Of a stretch of 64,000 nt of DNA, positions 5,493-60,974 are shown piece by piece; positions within the stretch are counted from its first letter, which is position 1, and the number at the start of each line of letters is the position of its first letter. Source of the DNA: a virus; the IMG/VR virus record IMGVR_UViG_3300049440_000308, positions 62,309-126,308 of that record; one strand, written 5' to 3'. The position numbers were made by a program, and so were the translations under genes. Under the pieces are notes generated by a model. That model worked only from the letters and a program-made list of their open reading frames with translations, searched no databases and was not told the origin of the DNA.

Positions 5493-7153
5493 CCGGCTGC
5501 GCTACCTGCTGGAACTGCAGCGGCGCGCGGCGAGGATCAAACCGGGGGTCGCCCGCTACTACCATGACCCGCTGGCGTTCGCCGCCGACTGCATCGACTG
5601 GCGCGGTACTGACGGGCTGACCGGCTACCAGGAGGACATCATCGGGGGCCTGCCGCAGCGTAAGCGCACTGCGGTCCGCGGCCCCCATGGATTAAGGACT
5701 AGGCAAATCGGCTATCTCCGCGGTGACGGTCCTGTGGTTCGCGCTGACCAGGGACGCCGCCGGGGTCGACTGGAAGGTCGCGACGACCGCCGGCGGCTGG
5801 CACCAACTGACACAGTACTTGTGGCCGGAGATCCACAAGTGGTCCGGGCGACTGCGCTGGGACAAGGTCCGCGACGGCCGGCCGTTCACCCGGTCCGAGC
5901 TGCAGAACCTGAACCTGCGGCTCGCCCACGGGCATGCCTTCGCGGGGGCATCCGCTAACGCCGCCCTGATCGAGGGCGCGCACGCCGACTCGCTGCTGTT
6001 CGTGTTCGACGAGTCCAAGGCGATCCCCGCGGGCACCTTCGACGCCTGCGAGGGCGCGTTCTCCGGCGCCGGGGAGGGCGGTACCGAGGCGTTCGCCCTG
6101 GCCCTGTCGACCCCGGGGGCACCGCAGGGCCGCTTCTACGACATCCAGTCACGCCGCCCCGGTTACGAGGACTGGCACCCTGTCCACGTTACCCTCGCCG
6201 CCGCCATGGCCGCCGGGCGGATCACCGCCGAGTGGGCACGGCAGCGCCTGCGGCAGTGGGGCGAGCAGTCAGCGATCTACCAGAACCGTGTCCTCGGGGA
6301 GTTCCACGCCGAGGACGAGGATGCGGTCATCCCCCTCGCCTGGGCGGAGGCCGCAGTGGAACGCTGGCACCAGTGGGAGGCCGCGGGCAAGCCCGACACG
6401 GGCAGGCCTCGTACCGTCGGCGTGGACGTCGCCCGGTTCGGCGGAGACAAGACGGTCCTCGCGGTCCGCAACGGCCCGGTGATCACCGAACTGCGCCGGT
6501 ACACCAAGGAAGACACCATGGCCACCACCGGCCGCGTGAAGGGCATCCTGGCGGCGGACGACTCCCGCATCGCGGTGGTCGACGTGATCGGCATCGGCGC
6601 CGGGGTGGTCGACCGGCTCCGCGAGCAGCACGCCCGCGTCGTGGCGTTCAACGCCTCCCGTGGCTCCAAGGCCCGTGACAGCACGAGGGAGATGGGCTTC
6701 TACAACCGCAGGAGCGAAGCCTGGTGGACGCTCCGGGAAGCCCTCGACCCGTCCGCCGGCCCTGACATCTGCCTGCCCGATGACGAGATGCTCCTCGGTG
6801 ACCTGTCCACCCCTAAGTGGGAGGTCCGTTCCGGAGGCAAGATCCTGGTGGAAAGCACCGATGACATCCGGGAGCGCATCGGCCGTTCCCCCGACGACGG
6901 AACCGCGGTCGTGCAGGCGTTCGTCCCGCATCTCGGCGACGCCTCGCCGGCCACCGTCCGCCAGTGGGCCGGCGCTGCCGGCCTGGCTGACATGGGCGTG
7001 AACGAGGAAACGAAAGCGCACAGGCGGATGCGGGAGATTCAGGGGCGCGCGGCGGAGGGCCTTGAGGACGCGCCTTGGGATCTAGACGGTTTCGGCCCGC
7101 AGGACGAGGCGGAGGCGAGGCCTCGCGGCAACAACGTCAGGACATGGCGGTAG
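5464..7153 (+). CDS. terL: terminase large subunit, interrupted by a 7-nt insert in Walker A (joins 5464-5691 with 5699-7153)
   Basis: AVRGPHG / LGKS Walker A split across frames; Walker B LLFVFDE; RNase H-like nuclease motifs VGVDVARFGGDKT, DVIGIG and SPDDG. Confidence 0.9.
5689..5698 (+). other. candidate translational bypass element GGA-TTAA-GGA
   Basis: Matching GGA codons flank the rare TTA; skipping 7 nt restores GPHGLGKS. Confidence 0.7.
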
Positions 7154-7174
7154 GCGTCGGGAGGGAGGCGGCGC

Positions 7175-7249
7175 CCGGCACTGAAGTTTGTCTGCGCGCT
7201 CGCGTCTCAGTGCCGGATACCCGTCTATGAGAATGCGCAGCTAGACGGG
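7175..7249. other. two tandem hairpins downstream of terL
   Basis: CCGGCACTGA/TCAGTGCCGG (7175-7216) and CCCGTCTA/TAGACGGG (7220-7249). Confidence 0.5.
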
Positions 7250-7325
7250 CACGCGGAGCGCCGCCCCCTCGGCCGCCTAGCCTAGCGCAAGGGTAAACGT
7301 CAGGGCGTGGCGGTAGGGTGCCCCC

Positions 7326-7508
7326 GTGAGCCCGATCCTGACCTGGGAAGGCGCCGGAGAGGTGCCGAACTTCTGCCCGCAGGGCTGCGGCGGCATCAGC
7401 GAGGACGTCTACGGCGGCCCCTGCCAGGCCTGCTGGGCTGAGGTTGACCGGGAGGAACAGGCCCGGGACGAGGAGGACGAGCGGTGGCGTCAGGGGCGCG
7501 GCGGCTTA
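7326..7508 (+). CDS. small Cys-containing protein; true end uncertain (runs into a TTA at 7506 and the convergent gene)
   Basis: GC3-rich CPQGC..CQAC segment; weak SD. Confidence 0.35.
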
Positions 7509-7715
7509 GCCCACCACAACTGCCCGACCGCGACCTCACCGCCGGGGTTCTCCCGCAGGAACGCAAGCGCCTGGTCGACCCCGGCCCGGCAGGACGCGCA
7601 GTCGTGCATCAGCCCCAGCGTCCGCACCTGCCCGGGATCCCCGGTGACCGTCCAGTCGGCATGGTGCAGCCGCTCCCCGATGTTCGCCGCGAGCCGCTCC
7701 GACACCTTGCGCAGG
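7490..7715 (-). CDS. hypothetical protein (start uncertain)
   Basis: Minus frame reads as natural protein (HHADWTVTGDPGQVRTLGLMHDCASC) with high GC3. Confidence 0.5.
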
Positions 7716-7815
7716 TCACGCCCGGGACGGCACGCCAGTGCAAGACGTGCACGAAGGCGAAGGCGAAGGAGGCGACGGCCAGGCGCAAGGCTGCGTGACC
7801 TGACCGCTGCCACGG

Positions 7816-7848
7816 AAGGGCCGGGGGCGTTGCGCGTCCCCGGCCCTT
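7816..7848. terminator. GC-rich hairpin
   Basis: AAGGGCCGGGG/CCCCGGCCCTT 11-bp stem. Confidence 0.45.
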
Positions 7849-7891
7849 AGCTATGCCCGCTCCCGTCCCGCCTGTATCGTGGTGCGCAGCG

Positions 7892-7916: not shown

Positions 7917-7976
7917 CGCAATTGCAGCAGGCGCCCGCGTGCGCCATGAGCAGCGGTGAGGAGGTGATGCCAGGTC

Positions 7977-9587
7977 ATGGTCGATACCCGCTCCGCGAAG
8001 ATCATCGAGTTCCCCGACCTCCCGCCGAAGGGCTCTCCCGGTAACGGCGGTAGAAGGTCCTTGCTAGGGCAAGAACTTGGAACCTCGTTCGATTACGGAC
8101 AGCGCTTGTTCGCCTACTATTTAGGGCGCCGGAGATGTGTTCGATTATGGCTTACCCACCTCGGCGAATTCAGCGCGCGGGACTACCGCCAGATGCTGAG
8201 CCGGAACGGGACTGCTAGCGCTCTCGAAATGGTGCTCACCCTGCCTATCCGTGAGGCCGATTTCAGCATTGAGCCGGGCAAGGGCGACACCGGCGAGTGC
8301 GACTTCGCCCGGTCTGTTCTGCTGACACCTGACTCGGAAGGTGGCATGGTCACGCCGTGGACCACGGTAATGGGCCAGATCACTGCCGGCCAGTTGTACA
8401 AAAAGTCCTTCTTCGAGAAGGTTTTCGGCATCCGTGACCTGGACGGCAAGATCATTTACCGGAAGGTCGCCTACCGTCCCCCGTCGACCTGCCAGGCCCG
8501 CTTCAACGACCGGTCGGGCGAGCCGAACGGGTTCCGGCAGCAGGTGTGGCTGTTCGGCGGCAACCTGGCCATTTCGAACAAGCAGAAGGTCCCCGGGTAC
8601 GTCGATGTCCCGCGTGTCCGCAGTTACGTTTACGTGCACGGCAAGCACCGCGAGCCGTTGAGTGGCGTCAGTGAGGTTGAGGTAACTTACTGGTGCCACC
8701 AGACATCCATGAAGCTGATGTTCCTCTGGATGCAATTTCTTGAGGGGATGGCACTACAGAGGCTGGTGGTGTACGGCAACGACCAGCCGGAGGCCACCCA
8801 GCGAGCCGACGACATCTCCCAGCTCCGCGGCTCCGGCGTCGTCGGCCTGGTGCACCCGATCGACGGCCAGAAGGCATTCGAGGCGATCCCGTCAGCGGGA
8901 GACGCGGGTCATTTCTTCACCGAGGCGCTGGCCTTCCTGCAGAGTTGGTCGATCAGCAGCGTCCTCGCCGGCTTCCTCGGCCTCGCCAGCGCGTCGACCG
9001 GCGGCCGCGGCGCCTACTCGCTGAGCCAGGACCAGAGCGATTTCTACTTGAAATCCCGTCAGGGCGTGGCGAAGGAGATCGCGGAGAGCATCTCCTGTGA
9101 CCTGATCCGCCCGCTGATCCTGCTGAACTTCGGCTCGGGCGCGGCGTTCCCCCAGGCGCGATTCGGCCCGCTGCAGGATGAGCAGGTCCAGATGCTGCTC
9201 ACCATGTTCAGCACCATGTCGGCGGCCCCCGTGCTGCACATTCCACTCGCGGTTTTTGACCTGATCACCGAGCGCATGGCGAGCATCCTGCAGCTTGACG
9301 TGGATCAGGTGCACGAGGCCCTGGTGAGCACCGCGAGCCAGCGGGCGGAGCAGCTGGCGGGTAATCCCCCGCCGGGCATGCCCCCGGAGGCTGCGGCGGG
9401 CCTGGGGCAGCTGCAGGGGCTGGCGACGGCGGGTACGGCGATCGCGCAGCAGGCGGCAGCGAAGCAGGCGGGGAGCACGCCCCCGTCAACCGCACCGCCG
9501 CCGAGGATGCGGATGCCCGCCGCGGGGGCGCCTAAGCCGCCGCAGAACAATCCCATGGCCGGCGGGCTTCCGGGGGCGGGGCAGTGA
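7977..9587 (+). CDS. portal protein (Mu gp29/DUF935-like), with candidate double bypass at 8118-8165
   Basis: Position after terL, size, and portal-like motifs (FFEKVF, YRKVAYRP, VHGKHREPLSG, SVLAGFLGLA..GAYSLSQDQSDF); Pro-rich tail. Confidence 0.85.
   Translation: MVDTRSAKIIEFPDLPPKGSPGNGGRRSLLGQELGTSFDYGQRLFAYYLGRRRCVRLWLTHLGEFSARDYRQMLSRNGTASALEMVLTLPIREADFSIEPGKGDTGECDFARSVLLTPDSEGGMVTPWTTVMGQITAGQLYKKSFFEKVFGIRDLDGKIIYRKVAYRPPSTCQARFNDRSGEPNGFRQQVWLFGGNLAISNKQKVPGYVDVPRVRSYVYVHGKHREPLSGVSEVEVTYWCHQTSMKLMFLWMQFLEGMALQRLVVYGNDQPEATQRADDISQLRGSGVVGLVHPIDGQKAFEAIPSAGDAGHFFTEALAFLQSWSISSVLAGFLGLASASTGGRGAYSLSQDQSDFYLKSRQGVAKEIAESISCDLIRPLILLNFGSGAAFPQARFGPLQDEQVQMLLTMFSTMSAAPVLHIPLAVFDLITERMASILQLDVDQVHEALVSTASQRAEQLAGNPPPGMPPEAAAGLGQLQGLATAGTAIAQQAAAKQAGSTPPSTAPPPRMRMPAAGAPKPPQNNPMAGGLPGAGQ
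8118..8165 (+). other. two candidate bypass elements: TAT-TTAG and GGC-TTACCCACCTC-GGC
   Basis: The +1 frame between them reads GAGDVFDYG; hops of 4 and 14 nt sum to 18 and restore the frame. Confidence 0.65.
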
Positions 9588-11494: not shown

Positions 11495-11497
11495 GCC

Positions 11498-12103
11498 GTG
11501 CCGGCGCCTAGCGCCCGTGAGGCCCTGCGGCCCGGTGACGTCCTGGTCGTCCGGACGGCCGGGCTGCCCGCGAGGCTGATCCGGGTCGGGGAGGAACTGT
11601 CCGGCAAGGTGGGGCTCGACAACCACGTCGCCTTGTTCAGCCACTGGACCGGCAGTGTCCCGTGGGGCCTGGAGGGAAAACCGGGCGGGGTCGGCTGGGC
11701 GGACCTGCGCCCCTACCTGGCCAGCCATTTCACGGTGAACAACTGCCTGCAGCCGGGCCGTGACGACGCGGGCCGGGCGGAGGTCTGCGCGCAGGCGGGG
11801 CGGATGCTGGGGACCGCCTACGACTGGGAGGCGATCGCGGATGACACGCTGCGGGCTTTTCACATGCCGGACCTGTTCGCGTCCACCTGGCACGGGGCGG
11901 TCCCCGGTCATGTTCTCTGCAGCTCCTACGTCTCGTTCTTGTACGCCCGGCAGGGGTGGGTGCGCCCGCGGGTGCCGGACCGGGACACGGAACCCGGTGA
12001 CTGGACGGCCTTCATCACAGATCACCAGTGGAGTGCGACGATAAGCGCGTTACGGCAGATTGCTGAAGAGAGCGGGGTGCCCCGTGGTAAACATCACCGA
12101 TGA
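11498..12103 (+). CDS. permuted papain-like NlpC/P60 (YiiX/YebB-type) hydrolase
   Basis: PGDVLVV, NHVAL, EG.PGGV, GTAYDW and C-terminal CSS motif order; TTA at 12050. Confidence 0.7.
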   Translation: MPAPSAREALRPGDVLVVRTAGLPARLIRVGEELSGKVGLDNHVALFSHWTGSVPWGLEGKPGGVGWADLRPYLASHFTVNNCLQPGRDDAGRAEVCAQAGRMLGTAYDWEAIADDTLRAFHMPDLFASTWHGAVPGHVLCSSYVSFLYARQGWVRPRVPDRDTEPGDWTAFITDHQWSATISALRQIAEESGVPRGKHHR

Positions 12104-30308: not shown

Positions 30309-31220
30309 ATGCCCACTGGCGCAAGAGGTTACAGCGACTCACCGCGGCTTACCGTCTCCGAGCTGCTGAAGGACCCGCTGGTCATCCCGGCCTTGATCCT
30401 GGATATCACCGCCAACGAGTTCATCATGGACAGCGTGTTGCGGATGGGCGGGGCGGCCCCGTCCGGCGCGGTCCGCTACTCGGAGAGCACCCCGCTGTAC
30501 GCGGACGACTTCCCAGAGATCCGGGCCGAGTTCGCCGAGGTGCCCGTCGTGCCGACGTCCATCGGCGTGCCCCGCGTCGTGTTCTCCCACGAGCGGGCCA
30601 TGGCGATCATGGTCAGCGACGAGATGCGGCGCCGTCAGGCCATCGATCCTGTAACCAGGCAGCTACTCCAAGTCAAAAACACGATGGTCTATAGCTGGAA
30701 TACGGCATTTTATTCGGCTGTCGTGGCCAATGCCAGTATCCAGACGCTCGCAGTAGCGAATGCGTGGGCCTCAGCTTCGGCGACGATCCGCAGCGACATC
30801 GCCCAGGCCGTGTACCTGGTCGAGAACAGCAACATCGTCAGCCCGTCCGGCGTCACCCAGTGGCTCGGCTTCGAGGCCGACACGATGATCATCAACCACG
30901 GGACGAAGAACACGCTCCTGCAGTCGAGCACGTTCGCCGCGCCCTACATCGGCGACATCGCCAGCGAGAACCTGCAGTACACGGGCGTGCTGCCGAACAA
31001 GGTGTTCAACCTTGACGTGCTGGTCTCGCGTCAGGTGCCCGCGGGCAACGCGATCATCATGCAGCGGCACCGGGCCGGCTTCTACGCCGATGAACTGCCC
31101 TTCATCGCCGGGCCGCTTTATCGGAGCGAGGAAAGAAAGGTCTGGAGGAGCGACACCCAGAGGTCATCGGCAATCGGGCTTGACCAGCCGTTGGCCGTTG
31201 CCCTCCTGAGCGGCGTCTAG
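30309..31220 (+). CDS. major capsid protein (HK97 fold)
   Basis: AGGAGG SD; RAEFAEVP, ADTMIINHG and LVSRQVPAGNAIIM; size and position. Confidence 0.85.
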   Translation: MPTGARGYSDSPRLTVSELLKDPLVIPALILDITANEFIMDSVLRMGGAAPSGAVRYSESTPLYADDFPEIRAEFAEVPVVPTSIGVPRVVFSHERAMAIMVSDEMRRRQAIDPVTRQLLQVKNTMVYSWNTAFYSAVVANASIQTLAVANAWASASATIRSDIAQAVYLVENSNIVSPSGVTQWLGFEADTMIINHGTKNTLLQSSTFAAPYIGDIASENLQYTGVLPNKVFNLDVLVSRQVPAGNAIIMQRHRAGFYADELPFIAGPLYRSEERKVWRSDTQRSSAIGLDQPLAVALLSGV

Positions 31221-33736: not shown

Positions 33737-33749
33737 TGGGAGCGATACC

Positions 33750-35332: not shown

Positions 35333-35532
35333 CCACGCCCATGACGCCGACATGGCCCTGTAGCCGGCCGTGCGCGAGAGCCGGCGAGACGTGCGACCGC
35401 AGCAGCCCGGACGGGACGTGCAGGCCGGCGGCCCTCCGCTTCTTCGGTGCGCACTCCCTCGGACTGTCCGTTGAGCAGTGGGATGAGCGGCTGGCTCTCC
35501 TTCGCGGAGCGGCGGGGGCGGTGACCGCATGA
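35329..35532 (+). CDS. small Cys-containing protein
   Basis: GTGA/ATGA overlaps. Confidence 0.45.
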   Translation: MTTPMTPTWPCSRPCARAGETCDRSSPDGTCRPAALRFFGAHSLGLSVEQWDERLALLRGAAGAVTA

Positions 35533-36080
35533 CGACCCCGACCGCCTCCGGGACCCTGTACGCGAGCGTCGCCGACCTCCGCAACGGCATGGGCGGCACC
35601 GACGCGGGCACCGGCACCGCCGCGCAGCTCACCGACGCGCAGCTTGAACTCGCCCTGTACTCCGCGAGCAACCGCGTGTCGGTCTTCGCGGGCAATATCT
35701 ACGACAGCTCAACTCCGCAGGCCGTGCCCCCGCCGATCCTGCACGATCTCACCCTTGACCTTGCCGCGTTCTGGGCCTGGAAGACGTATCTCAAGGGAAA
35801 GGCGATGCCGGCGGACCACCCGGTGATGATCGCCTACACCAACGCCATGCAGATGCTCGGCGACGTGCGCGACGGCAAGATCCAACTCGGCGTCAACCCG
35901 GCCCCCGGCGTCGGGGATGAGATCGGGACGGTGATAAATCGCATTCCCCCGGTGTTCACCGGCAGGGACTCGAATACCCGTATCGATGTGACCACCGGGA
36001 CGCTTGAGGCCGATTCGCCCTTTTACACGCCTCGTACCAGCGGCCTCTTCGACGGGGGGCCAGTCTATGGCGGGGGCTAG
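35529..36080 (+). CDS. head-tail adaptor (Mu gp36/DUF1320-like)
   Basis: YASVADLR...ILHDLTLDLAAFW...YTNAMQML.DVRDGKIQL. Confidence 0.75.
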   Translation: MTTPTASGTLYASVADLRNGMGGTDAGTGTAAQLTDAQLELALYSASNRVSVFAGNIYDSSTPQAVPPPILHDLTLDLAAFWAWKTYLKGKAMPADHPVMIAYTNAMQMLGDVRDGKIQLGVNPAPGVGDEIGTVINRIPPVFTGRDSNTRIDVTTGTLEADSPFYTPRTSGLFDGGPVYGGG

Positions 36081-36603
36081 CGGGACCTTCAGCGAGCGGA
36101 TCGCCGAACTACGGCACCGGGTGGGCGGCGGATCGCGCTTGGTCGGCTCGGTCGCGTGCGACCAGCGGTACGCCATGGCACAGCACGAACATGGCGAATG
36201 GCATCATCCACGCGGCGGCCACGCCTTCTACCTGCGCGAACCGCTGTTCGGCAACTACCGCGACTACCTCGCCGACTACGCGCGGACGGTCCTGCACGAC
36301 GGCGGCCAGCCCGCGATGCGCCGGTCCATGGAGCACCTGTCCGATCAGGTCGAGATCACCGCTCCCCGGGAGTGGGGAGACCTTCGCTCCAGCGGGCACC
36401 CGAAGGTCACCCTCGGCGAACGAGTGGTCTACGACCGGCCGCCGAAGGCCGCGAGGCTCACCGCCGAGGAACTGAAGGCCAAGAGCCGCGCCACGATGCG
36501 GATGCGGCTCGCCGAGGGCTTGACGGTCTACTTCATGCGCGGTGGCAAGGTCATGGTCATACCGGGCCGGAACGAGCCGCACGGGCTGCGGGGGCGGCTA
36601 TGA
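36067..36603 (+). CDS. neck/tail completion protein (HK97 gp10-like)
   Basis: YAMAQHE...HPRGGHAFYLREPL...APREWGDLRSSG. Confidence 0.65.
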   Translation: MAGASGTFSERIAELRHRVGGGSRLVGSVACDQRYAMAQHEHGEWHHPRGGHAFYLREPLFGNYRDYLADYARTVLHDGGQPAMRRSMEHLSDQVEITAPREWGDLRSSGHPKVTLGERVVYDRPPKAARLTAEELKAKSRATMRMRLAEGLTVYFMRGGKVMVIPGRNEPHGLRGRL

Positions 36604-37808
36604 CGCCCTACTACAGCGATGACCTCGTGCGCCTGTACCAGGGTAATGCCGCGCACCTGCCGCTGGCGGACGGGTCGGTGGATCTCGTCGTGACCAGCCC
36701 GCCGTACTGGGCTCTGCGGTCGTATTCCGATGACGGCGAGCACTACGCCGGGCAGGTCGGCAGCGAGGCAACGCCTGCGGAGTACGTCGCCGCCCTGCTC
36801 GATTGCACCCGCGAGTGGATGCGGGTCCTCAAGCCGCAGGGCAGCCTGTTCGTCAACCTCGGTGACAAGTACGCAGGCGGAGACCTGGGCGGATGCCAGG
36901 CCAAGTCTTTGCACGGCCTCCCGTGGCGGTACGCGATCGGCTGCATTGACGACCTCGGCCTGATCCTGCGCGCGGAGATCGTCTGGAGCAAGCCGAACGG
37001 CCTGCCGGAAAGCGTCACCGACCGGGTGCGGCGCTCCCATGAGCAGGTGTTCCACTTCACGAAGTCGCCCCGGTACTTCTCGGCGGTTGATGAGGTGCGG
37101 GAGCAGTACGGCGCGAACACGCACGCCGGGCGCAAGGACGGTCACCCGAGCCCGGCGACTAGCGCCGTGCAGGGCGCGCGTCCGATGAACGCAGGGCCTA
37201 CGCAGCTAAACGGCGACCTGTCAAGGCGCAATTCCCTCGGTAAGCTGCCCGGCTCCGTCTGGGAGATCCCCTCCCAGCCGCTCACCGTCCCCGCGAGCCT
37301 CGGCGTCGACCACTTCGCCGCGTTCCCGATGGAACTGCCGCGCCGCTGCATCCTCGGCTGGTCGCCGCCCGGGATCTGCACCGCGTGCGGCGAGGGACGG
37401 CGGCCGGTGACCGTGGCTGAGGCTGCGAACACGCCAGGGTGGGCGCTAAGCCAGCGCGCCGGCCGGTCGTGGCACGGAGACGGGGAAGATCCCAAGCGCG
37501 CCCTCGGCGTGGCCGCAGTGGACCGCTCGCGGCGCATCACCGGCTACGCCTGCGCCTGCCCGGACGCCACCGCGCCGACGCGCCCGAGCGTGGTGCTCGA
37601 CCCGTTCGGCGGCACCGGCACCACTGCCCTCGTCGCCGCCATGCACGGCCGCGCGGGCATCAGCGTCGACCGCAGCGCCGACTACTGCCGCCTCGCCCGC
37701 TGGCGCGTCAGCGACCCCGCCGAGCGCGCCAGGGCCATGCAGGTACCCAAGCCGCCGCCCGTGCCCGAAGGACAGGACTCGCTGTTCGACATGGCGGTGA
37801 CCGCATGA
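36600..37808 (+). CDS. DNA methyltransferase (N4/N6, beta class)
   Basis: VTSPPY, WSKPNGLPES, HFAAFP and DPFGGTGTT. Confidence 0.9.
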   Translation: MTPYYSDDLVRLYQGNAAHLPLADGSVDLVVTSPPYWALRSYSDDGEHYAGQVGSEATPAEYVAALLDCTREWMRVLKPQGSLFVNLGDKYAGGDLGGCQAKSLHGLPWRYAIGCIDDLGLILRAEIVWSKPNGLPESVTDRVRRSHEQVFHFTKSPRYFSAVDEVREQYGANTHAGRKDGHPSPATSAVQGARPMNAGPTQLNGDLSRRNSLGKLPGSVWEIPSQPLTVPASLGVDHFAAFPMELPRRCILGWSPPGICTACGEGRRPVTVAEAANTPGWALSQRAGRSWHGDGEDPKRALGVAAVDRSRRITGYACACPDATAPTRPSVVLDPFGGTGTTALVAAMHGRAGISVDRSADYCRLARWRVSDPAERARAMQVPKPPPVPEGQDSLFDMAVTA

Positions 37809-49570: not shown

Positions 49571-51859
49571 ATGACGGTGACCAGGGACCAGACGGCCACC
49601 GGGCAGGCGTCCGCCAGCGTCAGCACCCTCACCATCACCTGGCCGACGCTGCCCGCAGCGGGCAGCAAGGCGCTCATCGGCCTGACCATGGGCGGCGGGC
49701 AGACAGCCTCCGTGACCAGTGCCGTCGACAACGGCACCACCCCGAGGACCTTCACCGCGGACATAGGCGTCGCGGAGGGCGCCTCCAACGCGGGCAAGTA
49801 CATCCTGCGGGCCGACAACATCACCCTGCCGTCATCCGGCAACTACCACGTCACCATCACCCTGTCCGCGACGGTCAGCTGGGTGACCGGCTGCGGGCGC
49901 ACCTACCTGGGGGTGGCCTCCGGCGGGCCCACCTCGGCGCCGGCCGCGGCCACCGGCACCAGCAGTTCCCCCGCCACCCCGAACGTCACCCCCGCCGTCA
50001 CCGGGGCGCTGCTGTTCGGCGTGTTCGATGACACCTCCGCCGTCAACCCCGAGTCGATCACGCTGACGACCAGCGGCGCGACCACCGTCTACGCGCAGGT
50101 CAACGGGGCCAGCTTCCTCGCCGGGGCCGTCGCCGACAAGATCGCCACCACGACCAGCTCCCAGGGGCTCGCCTGGACGCTGGGCGACAGCCCCGACTGG
50201 GGCGCGTGGATCGCCGTCTACTCCCCGGGCGCCACCGCGCACCCGGCCGCCGCCGCCCTCACGGGCACCGGCACCCTGACGGCGGGCGCTGGGGTGGGCG
50301 TTCCCCGCGGCGTCACCCTCACCGGGACGGGCGCCCTCACGACGGCGCCCGTGATCGCGATCCCGGAGGCCGCCGCCCTGGCCGGGGACGGGACGCTGAC
50401 GGCGGGCGCGGACGCCCTCGCCCCCGGGCAGGTGTCCGCCGCCCTGACGGGCACCGGGACACTGGCGATCGCGGGCGGCCTCGGCTGGTCGGCCTCCGCC
50501 TCCCTCGCGGGCCTGGGAACGCTCACCGCGGGTTACACGGGCCTCATGCTGCAGTCCGCCGCCCTGTCCGGGGACGGGCTGCTCACCGTCGCGGGGACGG
50601 CGGCGCTGAAGTTCACCGCAGGCCTGTTCGGCGCCGGGTTCCTGAGCATCCCCCAGGTCGCCGGGGGCCTCGTCAGCGGGGTCGGCGGGGCGGGCTCCCC
50701 GATGGCGCTGCCTGGCTCCAGCCAGGTCGCCGTAGCGCCCCCCGGGTCCAGTAACTGGCAGTGGCTCGGCACTCTCGGGCACGTCACCGCCCTCACCTAC
50801 TCCTACGTGTGCCCCGGCGGGGCCGACAAGCTCACCATGACGATCCTGGTGCCGCCCGCCTACCGCACCCAGCTGTTCAACCCGGGATGGCAGGTCAAGG
50901 TCACCCGCGGCGGCCACCAGGTATGGGCAGGGAAACTCGACGAGCCGCAGCCCTCCCCGCAGGGCTGGACCCTCACCGCCGTCGGCAACGGCAACCGGGG
51001 CACCGACTACCTCGCCGTCTACAGCGGCACCTGGCCGGCCGGGCAGCCCGACAACGCCGTCAACGCCGCCATCACCCGCGGCCTGCCCTGGGGCAACCCC
51101 GGCATCGGGTCGCCCGCCGGGATCTGGCTCGGGCAGTCCGTTGACAGCGGCGCGCAGACCATCACCGGGCTGCTCAACCTCGTCACGAGCAGGGGCGGGC
51201 TCACCTGGTACGTGAACTCGCAGCCGGGCGGGCTGTACGGCTCCGACGACCTGTCCGTGTTCCCGCTGCCGACGACGCCGAACCGGCTGCTGGTGGTCAC
51301 GACGCCTGTAGCCCGCACGCTCGGTGGCGACGTCAACACCATTTACATCCGCTACCAGAGCGGATCGGAGAGCGCGACCACCGGCACGACGGCGACGTAC
51401 TCGACGGTCACGGCGGTCAACGCGCAGTCGGTGGCAGCACACGGCACCCTCGAGCAGTTCATCGATATCAGCGACGCCGGCCTGCTGACCAGCGCAGCAG
51501 CGCAAGCTGTGGGGACGAACGCGCTGCTGTTGTTCCAGAGGGCGAGTTTCGCGGGACCGTTCCAGGCATCGTACGGGCAGCTGCTCAACATTGGCGGGGC
51601 GCCGATCGACCCTGGCACGGACCAGAGCGCCACCATGGTCCGGGTGCTCCTGTATGACTACGGGCTGGGCGGCGAGGTAGTGCCCGGACCCATCACCTGG
51701 ATCACCGGGGCCTACGAATGGGATGACTTCAAGATGGTTGCCACCCTCACGCCCATGCAGGTACTGGACCAGTCGCTAAGTTCACTTCTGAGCGCGGGCC
51801 ACGCCTCGATCATGCCCGTCGCGGTCGCGGCCAGCTTAGGTCTCGACAAAGACCGGTAA
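49571..51859 (+). CDS. minor tail protein (N-terminal beta domain, LTGTGTL repeats, C-terminal hub-like domain)
   Basis: GGAGG SD; repeats at about 50230-50630; TTA at 51836. Confidence 0.75.
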   Translation: MTVTRDQTATGQASASVSTLTITWPTLPAAGSKALIGLTMGGGQTASVTSAVDNGTTPRTFTADIGVAEGASNAGKYILRADNITLPSSGNYHVTITLSATVSWVTGCGRTYLGVASGGPTSAPAAATGTSSSPATPNVTPAVTGALLFGVFDDTSAVNPESITLTTSGATTVYAQVNGASFLAGAVADKIATTTSSQGLAWTLGDSPDWGAWIAVYSPGATAHPAAAALTGTGTLTAGAGVGVPRGVTLTGTGALTTAPVIAIPEAAALAGDGTLTAGADALAPGQVSAALTGTGTLAIAGGLGWSASASLAGLGTLTAGYTGLMLQSAALSGDGLLTVAGTAALKFTAGLFGAGFLSIPQVAGGLVSGVGGAGSPMALPGSSQVAVAPPGSSNWQWLGTLGHVTALTYSYVCPGGADKLTMTILVPPAYRTQLFNPGWQVKVTRGGHQVWAGKLDEPQPSPQGWTLTAVGNGNRGTDYLAVYSGTWPAGQPDNAVNAAITRGLPWGNPGIGSPAGIWLGQSVDSGAQTITGLLNLVTSRGGLTWYVNSQPGGLYGSDDLSVFPLPTTPNRLLVVTTPVARTLGGDVNTIYIRYQSGSESATTGTTATYSTVTAVNAQSVAAHGTLEQFIDISDAGLLTSAAAQAVGTNALLLFQRASFAGPFQASYGQLLNIGGAPIDPGTDQSATMVRVLLYDYGLGGEVVPGPITWITGAYEWDDFKMVATLTPMQVLDQSLSSLLSAGHASIMPVAVAASLGLDKDR

Positions 51860-55439: not shown

Positions 55440-58400
55440 GTGGCCGTGACCGTTGACGCCGTAGGCCCGTCTTCCTCCGGCCAGGCATCCGCCAGCGCCA
55501 CCGCCCTTACCTGGACGCACACCGCCGGGGCCGGCGGCACCGCCGTGCTGGCGTGGGTCGGCTGCGTCGCCTCTGACGGGGTTGCCCTTTCCTCCATCAC
55601 GGTGACCGTCACGTACGGCGGCACGCCGATGACGCTGCTGGCGCCCGGCGTCCCGGCCGGCGGCCCGGCGGCCACCACCGCCGGCGGCATCTTCGTCTTC
55701 GGCCTCACCGGGGCGCCGGCCGGGGCCAGCACGGTCTCGGTAACCGTCAGCGGGGACAGCGGCAACGCCGGCGGCAACGAGGGCGGCTCGGTCTCCTATA
55801 ACGGCGCGGGCGGCTTCGGGACGCCGGGCACCGCGGGAAGCAACGGCGCGGCCGTCGCGTCCGGGACGGTCAGCGCCGCCGGCACCGCCTCCGGCAACCT
55901 GGTCGCCGCCGGCGTCGTCTGCGGGTCAGGCCCCGGGGTCACGTTCACCGCCCCGGCCGCCGGCGACGTCTCCTGCGCGAACAACAGCCTCTCCGGCGCC
56001 GGGTACCTGGGCATCTCGCACACGGCCTCGTCGTCCGGCACGGTCAGCACCGCCTGGACGCAGACCTCCGACTACTACGGCGCCGTGGCCGTCGAGGTCG
56101 TCGCGGCGGGCGCCGCCCCCGCGGTCGCGCCGCAGCCGCAGCCGCAGCCCGGAGGGCGCGCTTACCGCCGCCGCTGGCGGCGTGCCCAGCAGCGGGTGCT
56201 CACTACCGCGCCGGCTGCGGCTCCCGCCCAGTTCACCGAGGCGGGGGCCGCCGCGGACTCCCTGGGCGTCTCCTCCGCGGTGACACTCACGGAATCCGGC
56301 GCCGGCGCCGACCGGGGGCCGCTGGGGCCTCCCTATATTGCCGGGCTAGGGGGCGGCACCGGGACCGCCGGGTACTTCACGGACCAGTACGGGAACCCGC
56401 GCATCCTGTGGCTCGAGATGGCATGGGGCCTGCCGGGCAACGCGGGCCGGTGGAACAGCGGCAACTGGCAGTCCGACATGGACGCCTACTTCGCCGCCCG
56501 GGCAAGCCAGGGCTACACGGGCTGGTGGGGCGTCCCGTGGATCAACACCATCATCGACCCGGGCGCCGTCCACGCGGACGGCCGCACCTGGGACGGCATC
56601 TACCCGCTGACAGTCAACGGCACCCCCGGGAGCATCGCGACCGGCAGCGAGACGCTAGGGCTCAACGGCAGCTTCTGGGCGCGGACCGACTACATGGTCT
56701 CGTCGGCGCTCCGCAACGGGATCACGGTCTTCCTGAACCTGGGCATGGGCTACGACTTCTCGCAGTCCGGGTTCATCTGGCAGCACCTGAGTACTACGCA
56801 GGCGCAGGCGTTCGGCGCGCTGGTCGCCGCCCGGTACCCGCAGGGCACCTACCCGAACCTGCAGTGGGTGTTCGGCGACGACACGCTGGCCGGCGCGTAC
56901 GATACCTACTTCTCCGCGATGCTGACCGGGGTCCGGGGCACGGGGGACACGCGCAACGCGGTTGCCGTGGAGCAGCTGCTGGAGACCAACTGCCACATCG
57001 AGTTCGACACCGGGGCCGTGTACGTGCCCGGCGGGTTCGGCGTCACGAGCGCCCAGTGGAACCACGTCTACACCTACTGCCCTCCGTACCTGGCCGTTGA
57101 GGACTCCTACACCGAGTCGGGGACCACGCTGATCCCGGTCGTGTGGGGTGACGGCGCCTGGCACGGGGACACTGACAACGGCACGCCGGAGTACACCATC
57201 CGCCGGCAGACCTGGTGGGCGCTGGCCTCGGGGGCGCGCGGCGTCAACCAGACGGCCGGGCCCTCGAATGCCGCCACCGCCACGATCTGGACCTGGCAGT
57301 CCGGCGCGGCAGCGGGACTGGCATCCGACCCCGCCGGGCCGTGGTGCACGACCACCGGGCCGGCGGTCAGCGCGTACTTCACCAGCCTGCCGGGCTGGCA
57401 CAAGCTCGTCCCGGACACGGGAAGCGCGCTGGTGACCAGCGGCCGGGGTTCGAAGTCCACTAGTGCCGCGCCCGGTTTCACCCCGGCCAACTCGTACGGC
57501 GACACCGACAACTACGTTGCCGCCAGCCGGGTCAGCGACGGGTCCCTGGCGGTCATCTACTGCGGGCAGCACTTCAGCATCACCATCGACCAGGCCAAGA
57601 TGGCAGCCGGGTACACGGCCACCTGGGTTGACCCGTCGTCACTGGCCGTGACCGCGGCCACGGCCGGCTCCTCCTACAACTCGACTCCGCAGGGTAACAA
57701 CAGCGCGGGCAACCCGGACTGGGTACTGGTACTCCAGGCATCTGTCACGGCTGCGTCACTGCCTGAAGCCGGCTCCGGTACCGACGCCCTGGCGGTCTCG
57801 CAGCCGGCCGGCCTCAGTGAGCCCGGCACGGCAAGTGACGCCCTCGCACTGGCGGGGCCGGCTCCGCTGGCAGAGACGGGTGCCGCGGCCGCCGCCCTGG
57901 CGGTCGTGCAGCCGGCGCCCTTCACTGAGGCGGGCGCCGGCGCGGATGCCCCCGGGATCATGCCGGGCCTTGCTGACACCGGGCAGGCCGCCGACACGCT
58001 CGCTGTCACGCTGGCCTCACTGACCGGGCTGACGGACGCCGGGGCCGGCACGGACAGCCTGGCGGTCGCACAGCCGGCCCCGCTGACGGAAACAGGCGCG
58101 GGGTCTGATGCCCTGGCGCTGGCGCAGCCCGCAGGGCTCCCCGAGGCGGGCGCCGGGGCGGACGCGCTCGCCATCGCGGAACCCGCCAGCCTCACGGAGA
58201 GCGGCACCGGCACTGACCTTCTCGGGACCGTGCCGGGGCTGGCCGAGTCCGCCGGCGGCGCTGACGCGCTCGCGGTCTCGCAGCCGGCCCCGCTGAGCGA
58301 AGCGGGCACCGGGACCGACGCGATCGCGGTCTCGCAGCCGGCCGCGTTCCCGGAGTCCGGCACGGGCGACGGCCTGCCGGCGGTGACGCAGCCCACGGGG

Positions 58401-59507
58401 CTGGCCGGCAGCGGCACCGGGTCGGAGGCACTGTCGGTTACGCTCGTCACGCTCGCCGGCCTGACTGAGGGCGGCTCGGGAGCCGATGCCCTTGCGGCCG
58501 TCCCGGTCGCGCCCCTGAGTGAGTCCGGTACCGGGGCGGACGCCCTCGGGGCCATGCCAGGGCTCACCGGGACGGGCGCCGGCGCTGACGCGCTCGCGCT
58601 AGCCCAGCCGGCCGCGCTCACGGAGGGGGGCACGGGCGACGGCCTGCTCACGCTGGCGCAGTTCACGGGCCTCGCCGAACCTGGCGCGGTCACGGACACG
58701 CTGGGGATATCGCAGGCCGCCGCCGTCGCCCTGGCCGAGTCCGGGGCGGGGGGTCCTGAGCAGCTTGGCGTGATGCCGGGGCTCGCCGACACGGGCACGG
58801 GCTCCGGCTCGCTGGCGCTGGCGCAGCCCGCGGGGCTCACGGAGGCCGGCGCCGGGGATGAAACCCTGGCGCTAGCCCAGTCGGCCAGCCTGGCGGAGGC
58901 CGGCGCCGGGGCGGACTCCCTGGGTATCCCCAGCCTCAGCGTGATCAGCCTCGGCGAGGCCGGCGCAGGCAGTGACACGCTCGCCGTCACCGCCGGCACG
59001 GTTCCGCTCACGGACGCCGGGGCCGGCACAGACAGCCTGGCGGTGATGCAGCCCGGCACGGGCAGCACCGGCACCGTCACCTGGACGGCTCATCCTGCCC
59101 CGCCCCGCTGGCGGGCCTCGCCTGCCCCGCCCCGCTGGAGGATCATCATGGCACTGTTCGAGCCGATCGCCGCGATCAGCCTGGAAGAGGTCAACGTCAC
59201 CTGGCTGTCCCGGCTCGCCGGGACGACGGTTGACCCGACGGGCGTGAGCGAGGGGTCCACGCTGCTGCCGGTTCAGATGGCCTTCCCGGTATCATCCGGG
59301 AACCCTGCGCTTCCCGCGGAGCCTGTTACGTGGTTCGCGGCGTCATGGCTGCTCGGCGGGACCAGCATCGGCTACATAGCGCAGGCGCTAGTCGGCCCTG
59401 GCGGGACAGTGACGCTGACCGCCGGCATGACCTATGACTGCTGGTCAAAGATAAGCGGGGCGCCTGAGAGTCCAGCGAAATTCGCCGGCTCGATCGAGGT
59501 GTACTAG
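55440..59507 (+). CDS. large multidomain tail/fibre protein: beta domain, DUF4038/apiosidase-like TIM barrel, collagen-binding-like domain, LxExGxGxD repeats, C-terminal domain
   Basis: AGGGAGG SD; YFTDQYGNP..W, YFAARASQGY, WVFGDD, WGDGAW, IRRQTWWALASGA, WVDP and PDWVLVL. Confidence 0.75.
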   Translation: MAVTVDAVGPSSSGQASASATALTWTHTAGAGGTAVLAWVGCVASDGVALSSITVTVTYGGTPMTLLAPGVPAGGPAATTAGGIFVFGLTGAPAGASTVSVTVSGDSGNAGGNEGGSVSYNGAGGFGTPGTAGSNGAAVASGTVSAAGTASGNLVAAGVVCGSGPGVTFTAPAAGDVSCANNSLSGAGYLGISHTASSSGTVSTAWTQTSDYYGAVAVEVVAAGAAPAVAPQPQPQPGGRAYRRRWRRAQQRVLTTAPAAAPAQFTEAGAAADSLGVSSAVTLTESGAGADRGPLGPPYIAGLGGGTGTAGYFTDQYGNPRILWLEMAWGLPGNAGRWNSGNWQSDMDAYFAARASQGYTGWWGVPWINTIIDPGAVHADGRTWDGIYPLTVNGTPGSIATGSETLGLNGSFWARTDYMVSSALRNGITVFLNLGMGYDFSQSGFIWQHLSTTQAQAFGALVAARYPQGTYPNLQWVFGDDTLAGAYDTYFSAMLTGVRGTGDTRNAVAVEQLLETNCHIEFDTGAVYVPGGFGVTSAQWNHVYTYCPPYLAVEDSYTESGTTLIPVVWGDGAWHGDTDNGTPEYTIRRQTWWALASGARGVNQTAGPSNAATATIWTWQSGAAAGLASDPAGPWCTTTGPAVSAYFTSLPGWHKLVPDTGSALVTSGRGSKSTSAAPGFTPANSYGDTDNYVAASRVSDGSLAVIYCGQHFSITIDQAKMAAGYTATWVDPSSLAVTAATAGSSYNSTPQGNNSAGNPDWVLVLQASVTAASLPEAGSGTDALAVSQPAGLSEPGTASDALALAGPAPLAETGAAAAALAVVQPAPFTEAGAGADAPGIMPGLADTGQAADTLAVTLASLTGLTDAGAGTDSLAVAQPAPLTETGAGSDALALAQPAGLPEAGAGADALAIAEPASLTESGTGTDLLGTVPGLAESAGGADALAVSQPAPLSEAGTGTDAIAVSQPAAFPESGTGDGLPAVTQPTGLAGSGTGSEALSVTLVTLAGLTEGGSGADALAAVPVAPLSESGTGADALGAMPGLTGTGAGADALALAQPAALTEGGTGDGLLTLAQFTGLAEPGAVTDTLGISQAAAVALAESGAGGPEQLGVMPGLADTGTGSGSLALAQPAGLTEAGAGDETLALAQSASLAEAGAGADSLGIPSLSVISLGEAGAGSDTLAVTAGTVPLTDAGAGTDSLAVMQPGTGSTGTVTWTAHPAPPRWRASPAPPRWRIIMALFEPIAAISLEEVNVTWLSRLAGTTVDPTGVSEGSTLLPVQMAFPVSSGNPALPAEPVTWFAASWLLGGTSIGYIAQALVGPGGTVTLTAGMTYDCWSKISGAPESPAKFAGSIEVY
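57760..59060 (+). repeat. imperfect coding tandem repeats, units of about 17-21 aa (L-T/A-E-x-G-x-G-x-D-x-L)
   Basis: Repeats visible in the translation. Confidence 0.85.
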
Positions 59508-59511
59508 ACAG

Positions 59512-59546
59512 CGGCACCCCCCGGCGGGAAGTACCGGGGGGTGCCG
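59512..59546. terminator. bidirectional terminator hairpin between late and leftward genes
   Basis: 13-bp stem CGGCACCCCCCGG/CCGGGGGGTGCCG. Confidence 0.7.
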
Positions 59547-59576
59547 TAATGCTGTGCGCCTGGCCTAGCTCAAACG

Positions 59577-60608
59577 CTACGCGGTCACGAAGAACACGTA
59601 GCCGAAGTGAGATCCCGGCCACGGCGTGGTGCTGTGGGTGGAGCAGTCAGCCGGCCCGCTCACCGGCTGGTAGTACACGGTGTAGCCGTGGTGCTGCTCC
59701 AGCCCGCCGTACACCGCCACGTTCAGCCCGACCACGCCCGGCACCCAGCCCTGGTGGCCGTTGATCGCGCCGGGGCCGACGATGGTGAAGTGGTCGCACG
59801 AGGCCACGTTGCTCTGGATGAACGACACGTTCTCACGAGACGGGTTGATCCCCTCGGTGGCGCGCCCGCCGCTCAGCTTCGGCACTCCCTCGAAGAACGG
59901 CCCGACGACCGCGATGATCCCCTCGGTGGCCACGGAGCCGGCCGGGTCGGCGGCGCGAACGACGAACAGCGGGTACTTGCCGTTGACGGCGGTGCCGACC
60001 GACAGCGTCTGCGCGGTCCCGTCGAACACCACCCCGGCGGGCAGGTTGGACGCCGTCTCCGGCACGCTGCCCGGCACGGTCGAGAAGGTAACCGCCCCGT
60101 TGGCGTTGGTCGGCGCGTTCAGGGTGACGGTGTCCGTCGTGATGGTCACGCTGTCATGCGCGGTGTCGTCGCCAGGGGTGACAACCACGGTCGCAACGCC
60201 CCGCGCGAGACCGGGCGAAAGCTCCGACGCGTCCACCTTGAACGTGTCCGTGTGCCCGGCCGGGAAGACGCCCGGCTGGAGCGTAACCTGCCCGACGCCG
60301 ATCGTCGGGTCGGTGATCCCGTCAACGGGCAGGCCTGAATCACTCCAGTGGATGCCGGGGAAGGCGTTCAGGGTGCTGGTCGCGGCGAACTGGATGACCG
60401 ACCCGACGGGCACCTGGGTGGCAGGGCTGTTGACCGGGATGGCGAACGAGCCGAACATCGCGGTGATGCTGCTGATGCTGTCGGAGTACGCCTCGGCGGC
60501 GGTGACGCCGTTGGGGGTCGCGGCGTGCGCGGTCCCTCCCGCGGCAAGGGCCGCTCCCGCAATCAGCGCGGGTACCGCCAGGGCGGCGGCAAGCCTGCGG
60601 ATCTTCAT
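59577..60608 (-). CDS. secreted protein with putative Ig-like domains
   Basis: Sec signal MKIRRLAAALAVPALIAGAALAAGGTAHA; WSDSGLP and SNLPAGV repeats; GAGG SD. Confidence 0.75.
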   Translation of the reverse strand: MKIRRLAAALAVPALIAGAALAAGGTAHAATPNGVTAAEAYSDSISSITAMFGSFAIPVNSPATQVPVGSVIQFAATSTLNAFPGIHWSDSGLPVDGITDPTIGVGQVTLQPGVFPAGHTDTFKVDASELSPGLARGVATVVVTPGDDTAHDSVTITTDTVTLNAPTNANGAVTFSTVPGSVPETASNLPAGVVFDGTAQTLSVGTAVNGKYPLFVVRAADPAGSVATEGIIAVVGPFFEGVPKLSGGRATEGINPSRENVSFIQSNVASCDHFTIVGPGAINGHQGWVPGVVGLNVAVYGGLEQHHGYTVYYQPVSGPADCSTHSTTPWPGSHFGYVFFVTA

Positions 60609-60700
60609 ATGACCTCATTCTCTCTTAACGTGCCCCCTCGCGACTGTCGCGGGGGAAGCACCTGATTCTGCACCGCACCAGAGGGGAATGCGGCGGTATA

Positions 60701-60748
60701 GGGGCAACCTGGGGGCAACCTGTTACCTGCACTGCCCCAGGTTGCCCC
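60701..60748. promoter_or_regulatory. GGGGCAACCT direct repeats (11-bp period) plus inverted copy
   Basis: 60701-60710, 60712-60721 and inverted 60739-60748. Confidence 0.55.
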
Positions 60749-60773
60749 GGTTTACCGGGAAAAGACCCGGGTG

Positions 60774-60974
60774 CTACTCCGGCTGCACCGGGATGCCCGC
60801 GAGCAGCGCCCGGACTTCGGTTTCCCGGTAGCGGCGGTGGTTGCCGAGGGTGCGGATCGACGTGAGCTTCCCCGCCTTCGCCCACCGGGTGACGGTCTTC
60901 GGGTCGACGCGGAACATCGTGGCGACCTCCGCCGGGGTCAGCAGCGGCTCGGCCTCCGGGTGCCTTGTGCTCAT
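60774..60974 (-). CDS. bldC: BldC-family MerR-like HTH regulator
   Basis: EPLLTPAEVATMFRVDPKTVTRWAKAGKLTSIRTLG.HRRYRE.EVRALLAGIP matches Streptomyces BldC as I recall it. Confidence 0.9.
   Translation of the reverse strand: MSTRHPEAEPLLTPAEVATMFRVDPKTVTRWAKAGKLTSIRTLGNHRRYRETEVRALLAGIPVQPE

Follow-up and report, generated by a model that had tools for sequence, protein, structure and literature searches.

We analyzed a 64,000-nucleotide stretch of viral DNA, below called the window, which comprises bases 62,309 to 126,308 of the 131,159-bp IMG/VR record IMGVR_UViG_3300049440_000308 (G000; 71% GC, 0 N) and is the late arm, encoding packaging and virion proteins, of a ~131-kb, high-GC, apparently virulent soil actinophage. 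Our comparison of this DNA with its relatives shows that the genes for the terminase large subunit and the portal protein are split by short non-coding gaps beginning with TTA, of 7 nucleotides (nt) in the terminase gene and of 4 and 14 nt in the portal gene. These gaps are probably skipped by translational bypassing, with TTA remaining undecoded and with a BldC gene of the same window not being tied to them. Both the mechanism and the idea that it acts as a sensor are already known from phage phiHau3. What is new here is the breadth of the phenomenon, with three genes, nine sites, gaps of 4 to 15 nt, an interchange of TTA with stop codons, TTA at termination positions, and a co-resident BldC.

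In the proposed mechanism, full-length terminase and portal would be made through bypassing. With UUA in the A site, no charged cognate tRNA would arrive; the peptidyl-tRNA would leave its take-off codon (GGA, TAT, or GGC), the mRNA would slide, and the peptidyl-tRNA would re-pair where the gap ends, on a landing codon that matches, after which decoding would resume. A stem-loop that ends at the terminase take-off codon probably helps to drive the mRNA forward. UUA would be effectively undecoded in the infected cell, with the consequence that TTA has been purged from gene bodies and kept only as a hop trigger or near gene ends. Given that they are confined to low-copy packaging and connector genes, the gaps may be constitutive attenuators of expression or tolerated indels and not sensors.

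G000 was compared whole with four complete IMG/VR relatives of ~125 kb each (G001 to G004); further relatives are given by L numbers. For gene calling we used a self-trained codon model that treated TTA as neutral, and the resulting map was corrected by orthologs.

Gaps in the terminase and portal genes

The terminase large subunit is encoded on the plus strand in two segments. The N-terminal segment (5464-5691; 76 amino acids [aa], ending in ...AVRGPHG; start codon provisional) closes with the take-off codon GGA at 5689-5691. It is followed by the 7-nt gap TTAAGGA at 5692-5698 (plus strand), which falls in the Walker A P-loop and consists of the A-site TTA at 5692-5694 and, at its end, the landing codon GGA at 5696-5698. 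The C-terminal segment (5699-7153), 65-82% identical to IMG/VR relatives, resumes with CTA GGC AAA TCG (L-G-K-S). According to the codon model, coding potential switches frame at 5690-5700. The upstream frame would read on as ...AVRGPHG-L(TTA)-RTRQ..., and the other frame carries a TAA at 5693 and then reads G-L-GKSAISAV.... The N-terminal segment aligns to the terminase N termini of the phages TurkishDelight and phiAsp2, and the terminases of G003 and G004 align across the gap point in two frames.

The sequence AVRGPHGLGK[ST] is contiguous in ~140 relatives, among them TurkishDelight, phiAsp2, and metagenomic and prophage sequences, and G000 yields this conserved P-loop only by the skipping of exactly 7 nt: CAT GGA [TTAAGGA] CTA GGC AAA. 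Translation of any part of the gap would break the invariant GxxxxGKS spacing. Furthermore, since the TAA at 5693 stands in the +1 frame directly after the take-off codon, a simple +1 shift fails here. The TTAAGGA gap is also present in L003, L008 (= G001), and L010, with the variant TTAGCGA in L015. These four gap-carrying relatives share 73-82% amino acid identity with the window, and their flanks differ at synonymous sites; in addition, a contig assembled from soil run X3 matches the window exactly over this site. A metagenome scan for the terminase gap revealed no further carriers, and none of the 25 (of 34) prophage or cellular relatives with a readable P-loop has a gap in it.

A candidate stem-loop lies 5' of the gap, at 5640-5689 (plus strand), in which a helix GGGGGCC/GGCCCCC encloses a hairpin and the 3' end touches the take-off codon. 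Its predicted folding energy is -31.6 kcal/mol (z = -2.7). It was found in 5/5 gap carriers with 2 covarying pairs, albeit among five closely similar sequences; in noncarriers, the synonymous codons are different ones, and the outer helix GGGGGCC/GGCCCCC is not predicted. We saw no clear Shine-Dalgarno sequence at a suitable distance from the terminase gap. Bypassing of this gap predicts the junction peptides ...GPHGLGKSAIS... and ...AVRGPHGLGKSAISAVTVLWFALTR, and read-through would give ...GPHGLRT....

The portal gene on the same strand is interrupted twice. Its open reading frame (ORF) starts at an ATG at 7977 that is led by the ribosome-binding site GAGGAGGTGA. The first segment (7977-8120; 48 aa, MVDTRSAKIIEFPDLPPKGS...FDYGQRLFAYY), which is conserved in all relatives, ends with the take-off codon TAT at 8118-8120. 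There follows a 4-nt gap, TTAG, at 8121-8124 (portal site B; TAT[TTAG]GGC), with TTA in the A site and TAG as the landing codon. The second segment, GAGDVFDYG at 8125-8151, lies in the +1 frame relative to the first and ends with the take-off codon GGC at 8149-8151. At 8152-8165, a 14-nt gap, TTACCCACCTCGGC, occupies portal site D (GGC[TTACCCACCTCGGC]GAA), again with TTA in the A site and with a landing codon GGC that matches the take-off codon perfectly. The remainder of the protein, EFSARDYRQ-MLSRNG... (8166-9587), has a Mu-type fold (Pfam Portal_Mu, E = 1.4e-22) and shares 64-78% identity with its counterparts in G001, G002, and G004.

An alignment of portal DNA from 23 sequences allowed us to compare gapped and uninterrupted alleles. 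In the distant relatives L017, L020, L022, and L025-L027, the portal ORF runs uninterrupted across a conserved N-terminal region of ~70 aa, with the pattern ...FPDLPPKGS...EIGT(S/Q)FDYGQRLFAYYGEGDVFDYGEWSARD...ML.R.G.... In 13 closer sequences we counted 19 different gaps of 4-15 nt at six N-terminal sites, and in each of these sequences, deletion of the gaps gave back the conserved N terminus free of stops. At the amino acid level, ~20 sequences share the motif G(E/A)GDVFDYG. Site B reads TAC TAC GGC without a gap in G001, carries the same gap as G000 in G003 and TTAC in L013, and has TAG-initiated gaps of 7-8 nt in G002, L010, and G004 and a TGA-initiated gap in L014. At site D, most relatives lack a gap, and G002 has a 5-nt gap, TTAGC. 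At one portal site, three gap lengths (5, 7, and 8 nt) share the ending ACC, each behind the take-off codon ACT. The 15-nt gaps of L019 and L024 leave the frame unchanged and contain an in-frame TAA; they are therefore resolvable only by bypassing.

Variation is also evident within a single environment. In soil run X4, one strain is represented by a contig that covers the two G000 portal gaps with no insertion or deletion, and another has gap B lengthened by two bases (window 8123-8124), so that the length of this gap is polymorphic at the population level. Bypassing predicts the portal junction peptides ...FAYYGAGDVFDYGEFSAR... and ...LFAYYGAGDVFDYGEFSAR; the corresponding read-through forms are ...FAYYLGRRRCVR... 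and ...FAYYLGR.

Gaps were found only in the terminase, portal, and head-tail adaptor genes, and all five complete genomes of the lineage (G000-G004) carry them. The portal body of G003 contains a further gap, TTC[TTACCTGGTC]GAG (a +10 TTA gap), and the G004 ortholog of the head-tail adaptor gene 35529-36080 contains TAC[TTAC]CAG (G004:53480-53600, minus strand). About 20 nt upstream of the latter, the G004 adaptor gene holds a 9-nt, TTA-initiated, frame-neutral insert inside the perfect palindrome GACCAG TTAATT CTGGTC. Counting each gap once, there are 23: 19 at the portal N terminus, 2 in the terminase gene, and 1 each in the G003 portal body and the G004 adaptor gene. The initiating triplet is TTA in 19/23, TAG in 3/23, and TGA in 1/23, with all three types present at portal site B. 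Landing and take-off codons agree at two or more of three positions in 22/23 gaps and, among gaps of at least 6 nt without TTA overlap, in 17/18 (binomial P = 3e-13); in G000 the pairs are GGA to GGA, GGC to GGC, and TAT to TAG. Such agreement is the signature of a peptidyl-tRNA that re-pairs after a hop. In an all-against-all scan for frame breaks, all clean breaks except one had TTA, and a single break, a low-identity case, lacked both TTA and a stop codon at the junction.

As a separate observation, the fourth base of the TTA-initiated gaps (n = 19) is A in 8 and G in 5, so that in these gaps the take-off codon is followed at once by TAA or TAG in the +1 frame.

These rules bear on an alternative in which the ribosome, instead of hopping over the full gap, undergoes +1 (or -1/+2) frameshifting at the hungry TTA and inserts the extra residues. 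Every G000 gap (4, 7, and 14 nt) does alter the frame, and at TAC[TTAC]CAG a +1 shift adds only one Tyr. Nevertheless, we consider such frameshifting very unlikely. Besides the stop codons that follow the take-off codon directly in the +1 frame, TAA in the terminase gene and TAG at portal site B, the added residues break the GxxxxGKS spacing, and frameshifting is not needed for a frame-neutral 9-nt gap and could not pass the TAA of the 15-nt gaps. Nor does it account for the matching of landing codons or for the gaps of three different lengths that all land on ACC.

TTA codons across the genome

The first-pass annotation of this DNA had listed in-frame TTA only at hop sites or in the terminal regions of genes, and none in the capsid, tape measure, or leftward genes of the window. 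A count over the whole genome and its relatives bears out this description. Among the 454 TTA trinucleotides on both strands of the 131,159-bp genome, 6 are in-frame sense codons, compared with 48 expected from position-specific base composition. All six lie in late genes, at window positions 5692, 8121, 8152, 12050, 33734, and 51836. Three are the A-site codons of the coding gaps in the terminase (5692) and portal (8121 and 8152) genes, and the other three stand 7 to 17 codons ahead of a stop codon. No in-frame TTA occurs in the 62-kb early arm, the major head protein gene (30309-31220), the tape measure gene, or the other large late genes, nor in the leftward genes of the window, and the relatives G001-G004 have 1-4 each.

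The six positions were already on the earlier list, of which two further entries need qualification. Between the two portal gaps, TTA 8145 is in frame only if the zero frame is read, and it would thus be skipped if the hops occur. For the weak ORF that contains TTA 7506 (7326-7850), a minus-strand ORF is a competitor, and a tblastn check of the region gave no match to a protein of the relatives.

In the pooled well-scored genes of the five related genomes, 6/10 TTA codons fall in the last 10 codons of their gene and 9/10 in the last 25. The corresponding values are 9% and 17.5% for A/T-ending codons overall (P = 7e-5 and 1e-6 versus TTA) and 2-22% and 12-35% for other rare codons, so that, among rare codons, the bias toward gene ends is unique to TTA. 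The distribution of TTA is not due to chance. A scan for frame switches that did not depend on orthologs picked up mostly ordinary gene junctions, with TTA flagged at 10%, a rate close to that of many other codons, and was abandoned.

The explanation that requires no special biology, with the scarcity of TTA reflecting GC bias and the frame breaks reflecting assembly errors or mutations of defective phages, is already largely refuted by these data, and we give it next to no credence. TTA is indeed expected to be rare at 71% GC and ~90% GC at third codon positions, and the record is a metagenome assembly. However, the deficit persists after position-specific composition is taken into account (6 versus 48), and the positional bias is not shared by other codons. 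Moreover, identical gaps recur in independent assemblies and studies, both flanks of the gaps are under purifying selection across 20-30% divergence, and the gaps always start with TTA or a stop codon.

The three TTA codons near gene ends resemble stop codons in their placement. At 51836-51838 (plus strand), TTA is codon 756 of 762 in a 762-aa late protein (49571-51859) and aligns with the TAG stop of the G002 ortholog; the sequence AGC-T-TAG there provides a stop in the +1 frame. At 33734-33736 (plus strand), it directly follows ...LSN of the gene that begins at 33116, at the stop position of the orthologs: the aligned codon is TAG in G004 and TGA in G001, and G002 has TTA and two more codons before a TGA. 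The third, at 12050-12052 (plus strand), is codon 185 of 201 in a gene without assigned function (11498-12103), 31 nt before the start of the next gene; no ortholog of this gene was found among the four relatives. Altogether, five of the six in-frame TTA codons of G000 stand either at the stop position of relatives or at the head of an insert that the relatives lack. Since TTA swaps with TAG and TGA both at a take-off site and at gene ends, it behaves as a codon that is not decoded. This near-total exclusion of TTA from gene bodies can also be used as a read-out of the tRNA state of the host.

Beyond TTA 33734, the zero frame overlaps the next gene in another frame and scores negatively for coding, and the +1 frame is open into the next gene in G000 and G002 (..ATYGSD..). 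A minor fusion product from this +1 frame is conceivable. We rejected a hop from AAC 33731 that would fuse the two genes, as no consistent landing codon exists in G002 and G004. A coupling of the kind known from the adpA upstream open reading frame was likewise unsupported, the distance from the terminal TTA to the next start being inconsistent (-1 to >5000 nt).

Several observations weigh against bypassing as we propose it. The two portal gaps of G000 total 18 nt, and the zero frame is open throughout 7977-9587, which makes possible a read-through, full-length portal in which 15 altered residues, including UUA-encoded Leu (8121 and 8145), replace GAGDVFDYG. At the shortest gaps (4 nt, such as TAC[TTAC]), a +1 shift that adds one residue is possible. 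The relatives are mutually related, so that the gap counts are not fully independent, and the support for the terminase stem-loop comes from five closely related sequences. Finally, no in-frame stop follows TTA 33734 for 105 codons (ORF 33116-34051).

BldC and a proposed sensing of host development

The near-identical BldC that the first-pass annotation had recognized in the window is genuine. The gene, at 60774-60974 on the minus strand, encodes a MerR-like developmental regulator of 66 aa with a Pfam HTH_17/MerR domain (HTH_17, E = 2e-13). Its product is 92% identical over 62 aa to the crystallized Streptomyces BldC of PDB entries 6AMA/6AMK (E = 3e-33; Bush et al. 2019, as cited in PMC10732093) and 94-97% identical to cellular homologs, the named ones of which are from Streptosporangiaceae. 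It belongs to the same length class as the Streptomyces protein, from which it differs in being phage encoded and in a few substitutions, such as N for G in ...RTLG(G/N)HRRY... and T for A in ...YRE(A/T)E.... Among 50,697 phage records we found one weak match (73%), so a phage-borne BldC is unusual.

BldC of actinomycetes binds direct-repeat DNA in a head-to-tail manner and delays development. The G000 copy is of host type and recently acquired, and it could prolong vegetative growth. It is situated in a leftward cluster of genes without assigned function that also includes a second small HTH_17/MerR gene, 1.3 kb away on the minus strand (window 62244-62429). A relative of 116.6 kb, L153 (Ga0586909_0000062), carries a 91% copy in the same synteny, with genes for a tyrosine integrase and an HTH_31 protein at a distance of 3-5 kb, so that the lineage may include temperate members. 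In G000, which CheckV rates as complete, we found no integrase and no tyrosine or serine recombinase, and the phage is for this reason probably virulent.

The first-pass annotation had combined the TTA codons and BldC into one system, in which the phage senses the availability of UUA-decoding tRNA and reads or modulates host development. The components stand: TTA-initiated recoding in packaging genes is conserved, TTA is purged, and BldC is genuine. Their union is not supported: BldC does not covary with the gaps in the five complete genomes (n = 5). All five have gaps, yet BldC is absent from G001, G003 encodes a copy of 78% identity, and in G002 and G004 only distant HTH_17 paralogs (54-57%) are present.

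In this system, the gaps would sense host tRNA-Leu(UAA), the product of bldA, and thereby limit terminase and portal synthesis to one developmental phase, with BldC holding the permissive vegetative state. All three G000 gaps begin with TTA and none with a stop codon, so that terminase and portal output should fall if tRNA-Leu(UAA) is abundant. TTA is also strongly preferred as the initiator in the lineage (19/23), BldC is known to delay development, the phage copy is 92% identical to the Streptomyces protein, its gene is very rare in sequenced phages, a BldC-bearing relative (L153) has an integrase, and the same sensing idea has been published for phiHau3 (PMC10732093). We nevertheless regard this circuit as unlikely. 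Not only is the presence of BldC not tracked by the gaps, but TAG or TGA replaces TTA at portal site B in G002, G004, L010, and L014; a stop codon cannot report a tRNA level, and bypassing at this site in these relatives is thus not a tRNA read-out. The preference for TTA is equally explained by freedom from release-factor competition: among codons that leave the A site empty, TTA may just work best, as release factors compete at stop codons. Since G000 has no integrase and hence no lysogeny decision, the published lysis/lysogeny rationale does not transfer directly. If there is gating at all, it would place the packaging proteins in vegetative hyphae, because the hops require that the tRNA be absent.

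Equally improbable, in our view, is a scenario in which UUA is in effect a nonsense or unassigned codon in the infected cells, which the phage lineage has co-opted, in exchange with TAG and TGA, both as a terminator and as the trigger of many hops in packaging and connector genes, and in which the BldC of G000, by holding the host in a vegetative state with inactive tRNA-Leu(UAA), closes a self-reinforcing circuit between assembly and development. Were the link to BldC true, it would represent a new viral way of tying assembly to host differentiation.

Origin, precedents, and phage lineage

The terminase P-loop is also the site of an intein in six relatives (L004-L007, L011 [= G002], and L021), where it is inserted after GK (Ala1 ... 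THN|S). The inteins are of the mini type (151 aa) in L004-L007 and full length (363-367 aa) in L011 and L021. The insertion point lies 9 nt downstream of the position of the 7-nt TTA gap of G000, and inteins are found in those relatives whose terminases are nearest to that of the window. Within one well-supported clade of the terminase tree, the gapped, intein-bearing, and intact states are intermingled, and each has changed at least three times. Carriers that are not sisters have a nearly identical gap and stem-loop, which suggests spread by recombination.

Such patterns raise the possibility, doubtful as it may be, that the gaps are selfish or defensive indels without a regulatory role, with hopping efficient enough for low-copy proteins and with the terminase gap perhaps shielding the P-loop DNA from the homing endonuclease of the intein, by analogy with T4 gene 60 and mobA. 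The proximity of the intein in six relatives, the patchy distribution of states with a near-identical gap among nonsisters, the polymorphism of the portal gaps in presence, length, and sequence even within one soil sample, and the confinement of all gaps to terminase, portal, and head-tail adaptor genes would fit this origin. On the other hand, no recognition site is known for the endonuclease of the P-loop intein, and neither an intein nor an endonuclease lies near the portal hotspot. The conservation of a dedicated 5' stem-loop points to selection on the efficiency of bypassing, and regulation would agree with this as well. An origin as indels and translational bypassing of the resulting gaps are not mutually exclusive.

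The closest precedent is Streptomyces phage phiHau3. Bypassing at UUA was proposed for 10- and 7-nt inserts in the terminase genes of phiHau3 and of StrepC.1 and S. catenulae prophages (Smith et al. 2013, as described in PMC10732093), and reporter assays and mass spectrometry later supported it (Antonov et al. 2023, RNA Biol 20:926, PMC10732093). The hypothesis that the phage senses the stage of the host cell cycle via the bldA tRNA, with a lysis/lysogeny decision as the rationale, belongs to this work as well (Smith et al. 2013, as cited in PMC10732093; Antonov et al. 2023). Gaps were reported in 3/100 phiHau3-type terminases and in no other gene, and Antonov and colleagues found that a +1-frame stop in the gap doubled recoding.

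The large terminase gene of G000, like that of phiHau3, holds a short, frame-disrupting insert that begins with UUA, and the sequences on its two sides adjoin each other in relatives; a landing codon and a proposed 5' stem-loop are further points in common. Among the features that mark the phiHau3 type, G000 shows a UUA-first insert in a conserved essential ORF, contiguous flanks in relatives, no conserved product from a single-nucleotide shift, and a landing codon cognate or near-cognate to the take-off codon. A shortage of charged tRNA-Leu(UAA) during infection, another such feature, has indirect support from the purging of TTA and its equivalence to stop codons. In our own reading of the peptides printed in PMC10732093, the phiHau3 g6/g7 junction (...KGWG|KD...) resembles a P-loop as well. 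Unlike phiHau3, the present lineage has genomes of 125-131 kb and a P1 PacB-like terminase without a Pfam hit, and it probably infects a different host family. It also has gaps in the portal gene (six N-terminal sites, 19 variants, 4-15 nt) and in the head-tail adaptor gene, TAG or TGA can stand for TTA, TTA occurs at the stop positions of genes, and G000 has no integrase. In contrast to the low incidence among phiHau3-type terminases, all five complete genomes here carry several gaps. We found no published description of UUA gaps in a portal gene or in several genes of one phage.

The G000 gaps act similarly to the bypass of T4 gene 60 but are not members of that type. In both, the take-off and landing codons are GGA (here in the terminase gene), the A-site codon is not decoded (UAG in T4), and the peptidyl-tRNA re-pairs downstream. 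A possible association with homing endonucleases, here the intein at the same site in relatives, is shared with T4 gene 60 and its mobile cassette mobA. The differences lie in the size of the gaps (4-15 nt versus 50 nt), in the position of the structure 5' of the take-off codon, in the lack of an evident nascent-peptide signal or of a take-off stem-loop that holds the stop codon, in the use of a rare sense codon as the trigger, and in the presence of many sites per lineage.

Short spontaneous hops and frameshifts at hungry codons in E. coli have reportedly been described, in work attributed to Weiss and colleagues (1987) and to Gallant and Lindsley. They are like the gaps described here in spanning few nucleotides between matching codons, with a starved A-site codon. 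Unlike them, the phage gaps are obligatory for essential proteins and conserved in nature and are not laboratory artefacts. The mitochondria of Magnusiomyces capitatus are said to contain byp elements of 27-55 nt, in work attributed to Lang and colleagues (2014). As in that organism, many polymorphic gaps per gene differ between close relatives; the phage gaps are much shorter and occur in a bacterial virus.

Programmed bypassing is among the rarest recoding events, and its UUA form has so far comprised three terminase genes and one experimental paper. The lineage provides a natural mutational series of 23 gaps at 9 sites in three essential genes, with matched gap-free alleles for each site, swaps of TTA, TAG, and TGA at one take-off site, and a carrier-specific 5' stem-loop. 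It thereby makes rules for short hops testable with respect to codon matching, gap length, release-factor competition, and mRNA folding. There is a practical consequence for annotation, too: in high-GC actinophages, terminase and portal genes will come out of gene callers split or truncated.

With regard to the lineage, the closest cultured relatives of the terminase (tblastn) are those of Streptomyces phage TurkishDelight (56% identity) and Actinoplanes phage phiAsp2 (Pas60, 53%), and many IMG/VR relatives are nearer (65-82%). The top match in a named genome is a Streptosporangiaceae metagenome-assembled genome (71%), followed by Streptomyces and Nonomuraea prophages, which hints at Streptosporangiaceae or Streptomyces as the host. 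A megablast search with 20 kb of the window against the 50,697 phage records gave no match. Portions of G000 are present in soil and rhizosphere metagenomes of seven studies; RNA runs containing G000 were not found. The G000 genome encodes no tRNA.

Several other genes are of separate interest. The early arm of G000 contains a WhiB-like gene (genome 53020-53223), which lies outside the window. Two DNA methyltransferase genes (phrog_67; window 32439-33119 and 36600-37808) are located amid the head and connector genes. Finally, a 1355-aa late protein (window 55440-59507) with Apiosidase-like glycoside-hydrolase and collagen-binding-like domains is probably a tail-associated depolymerase.

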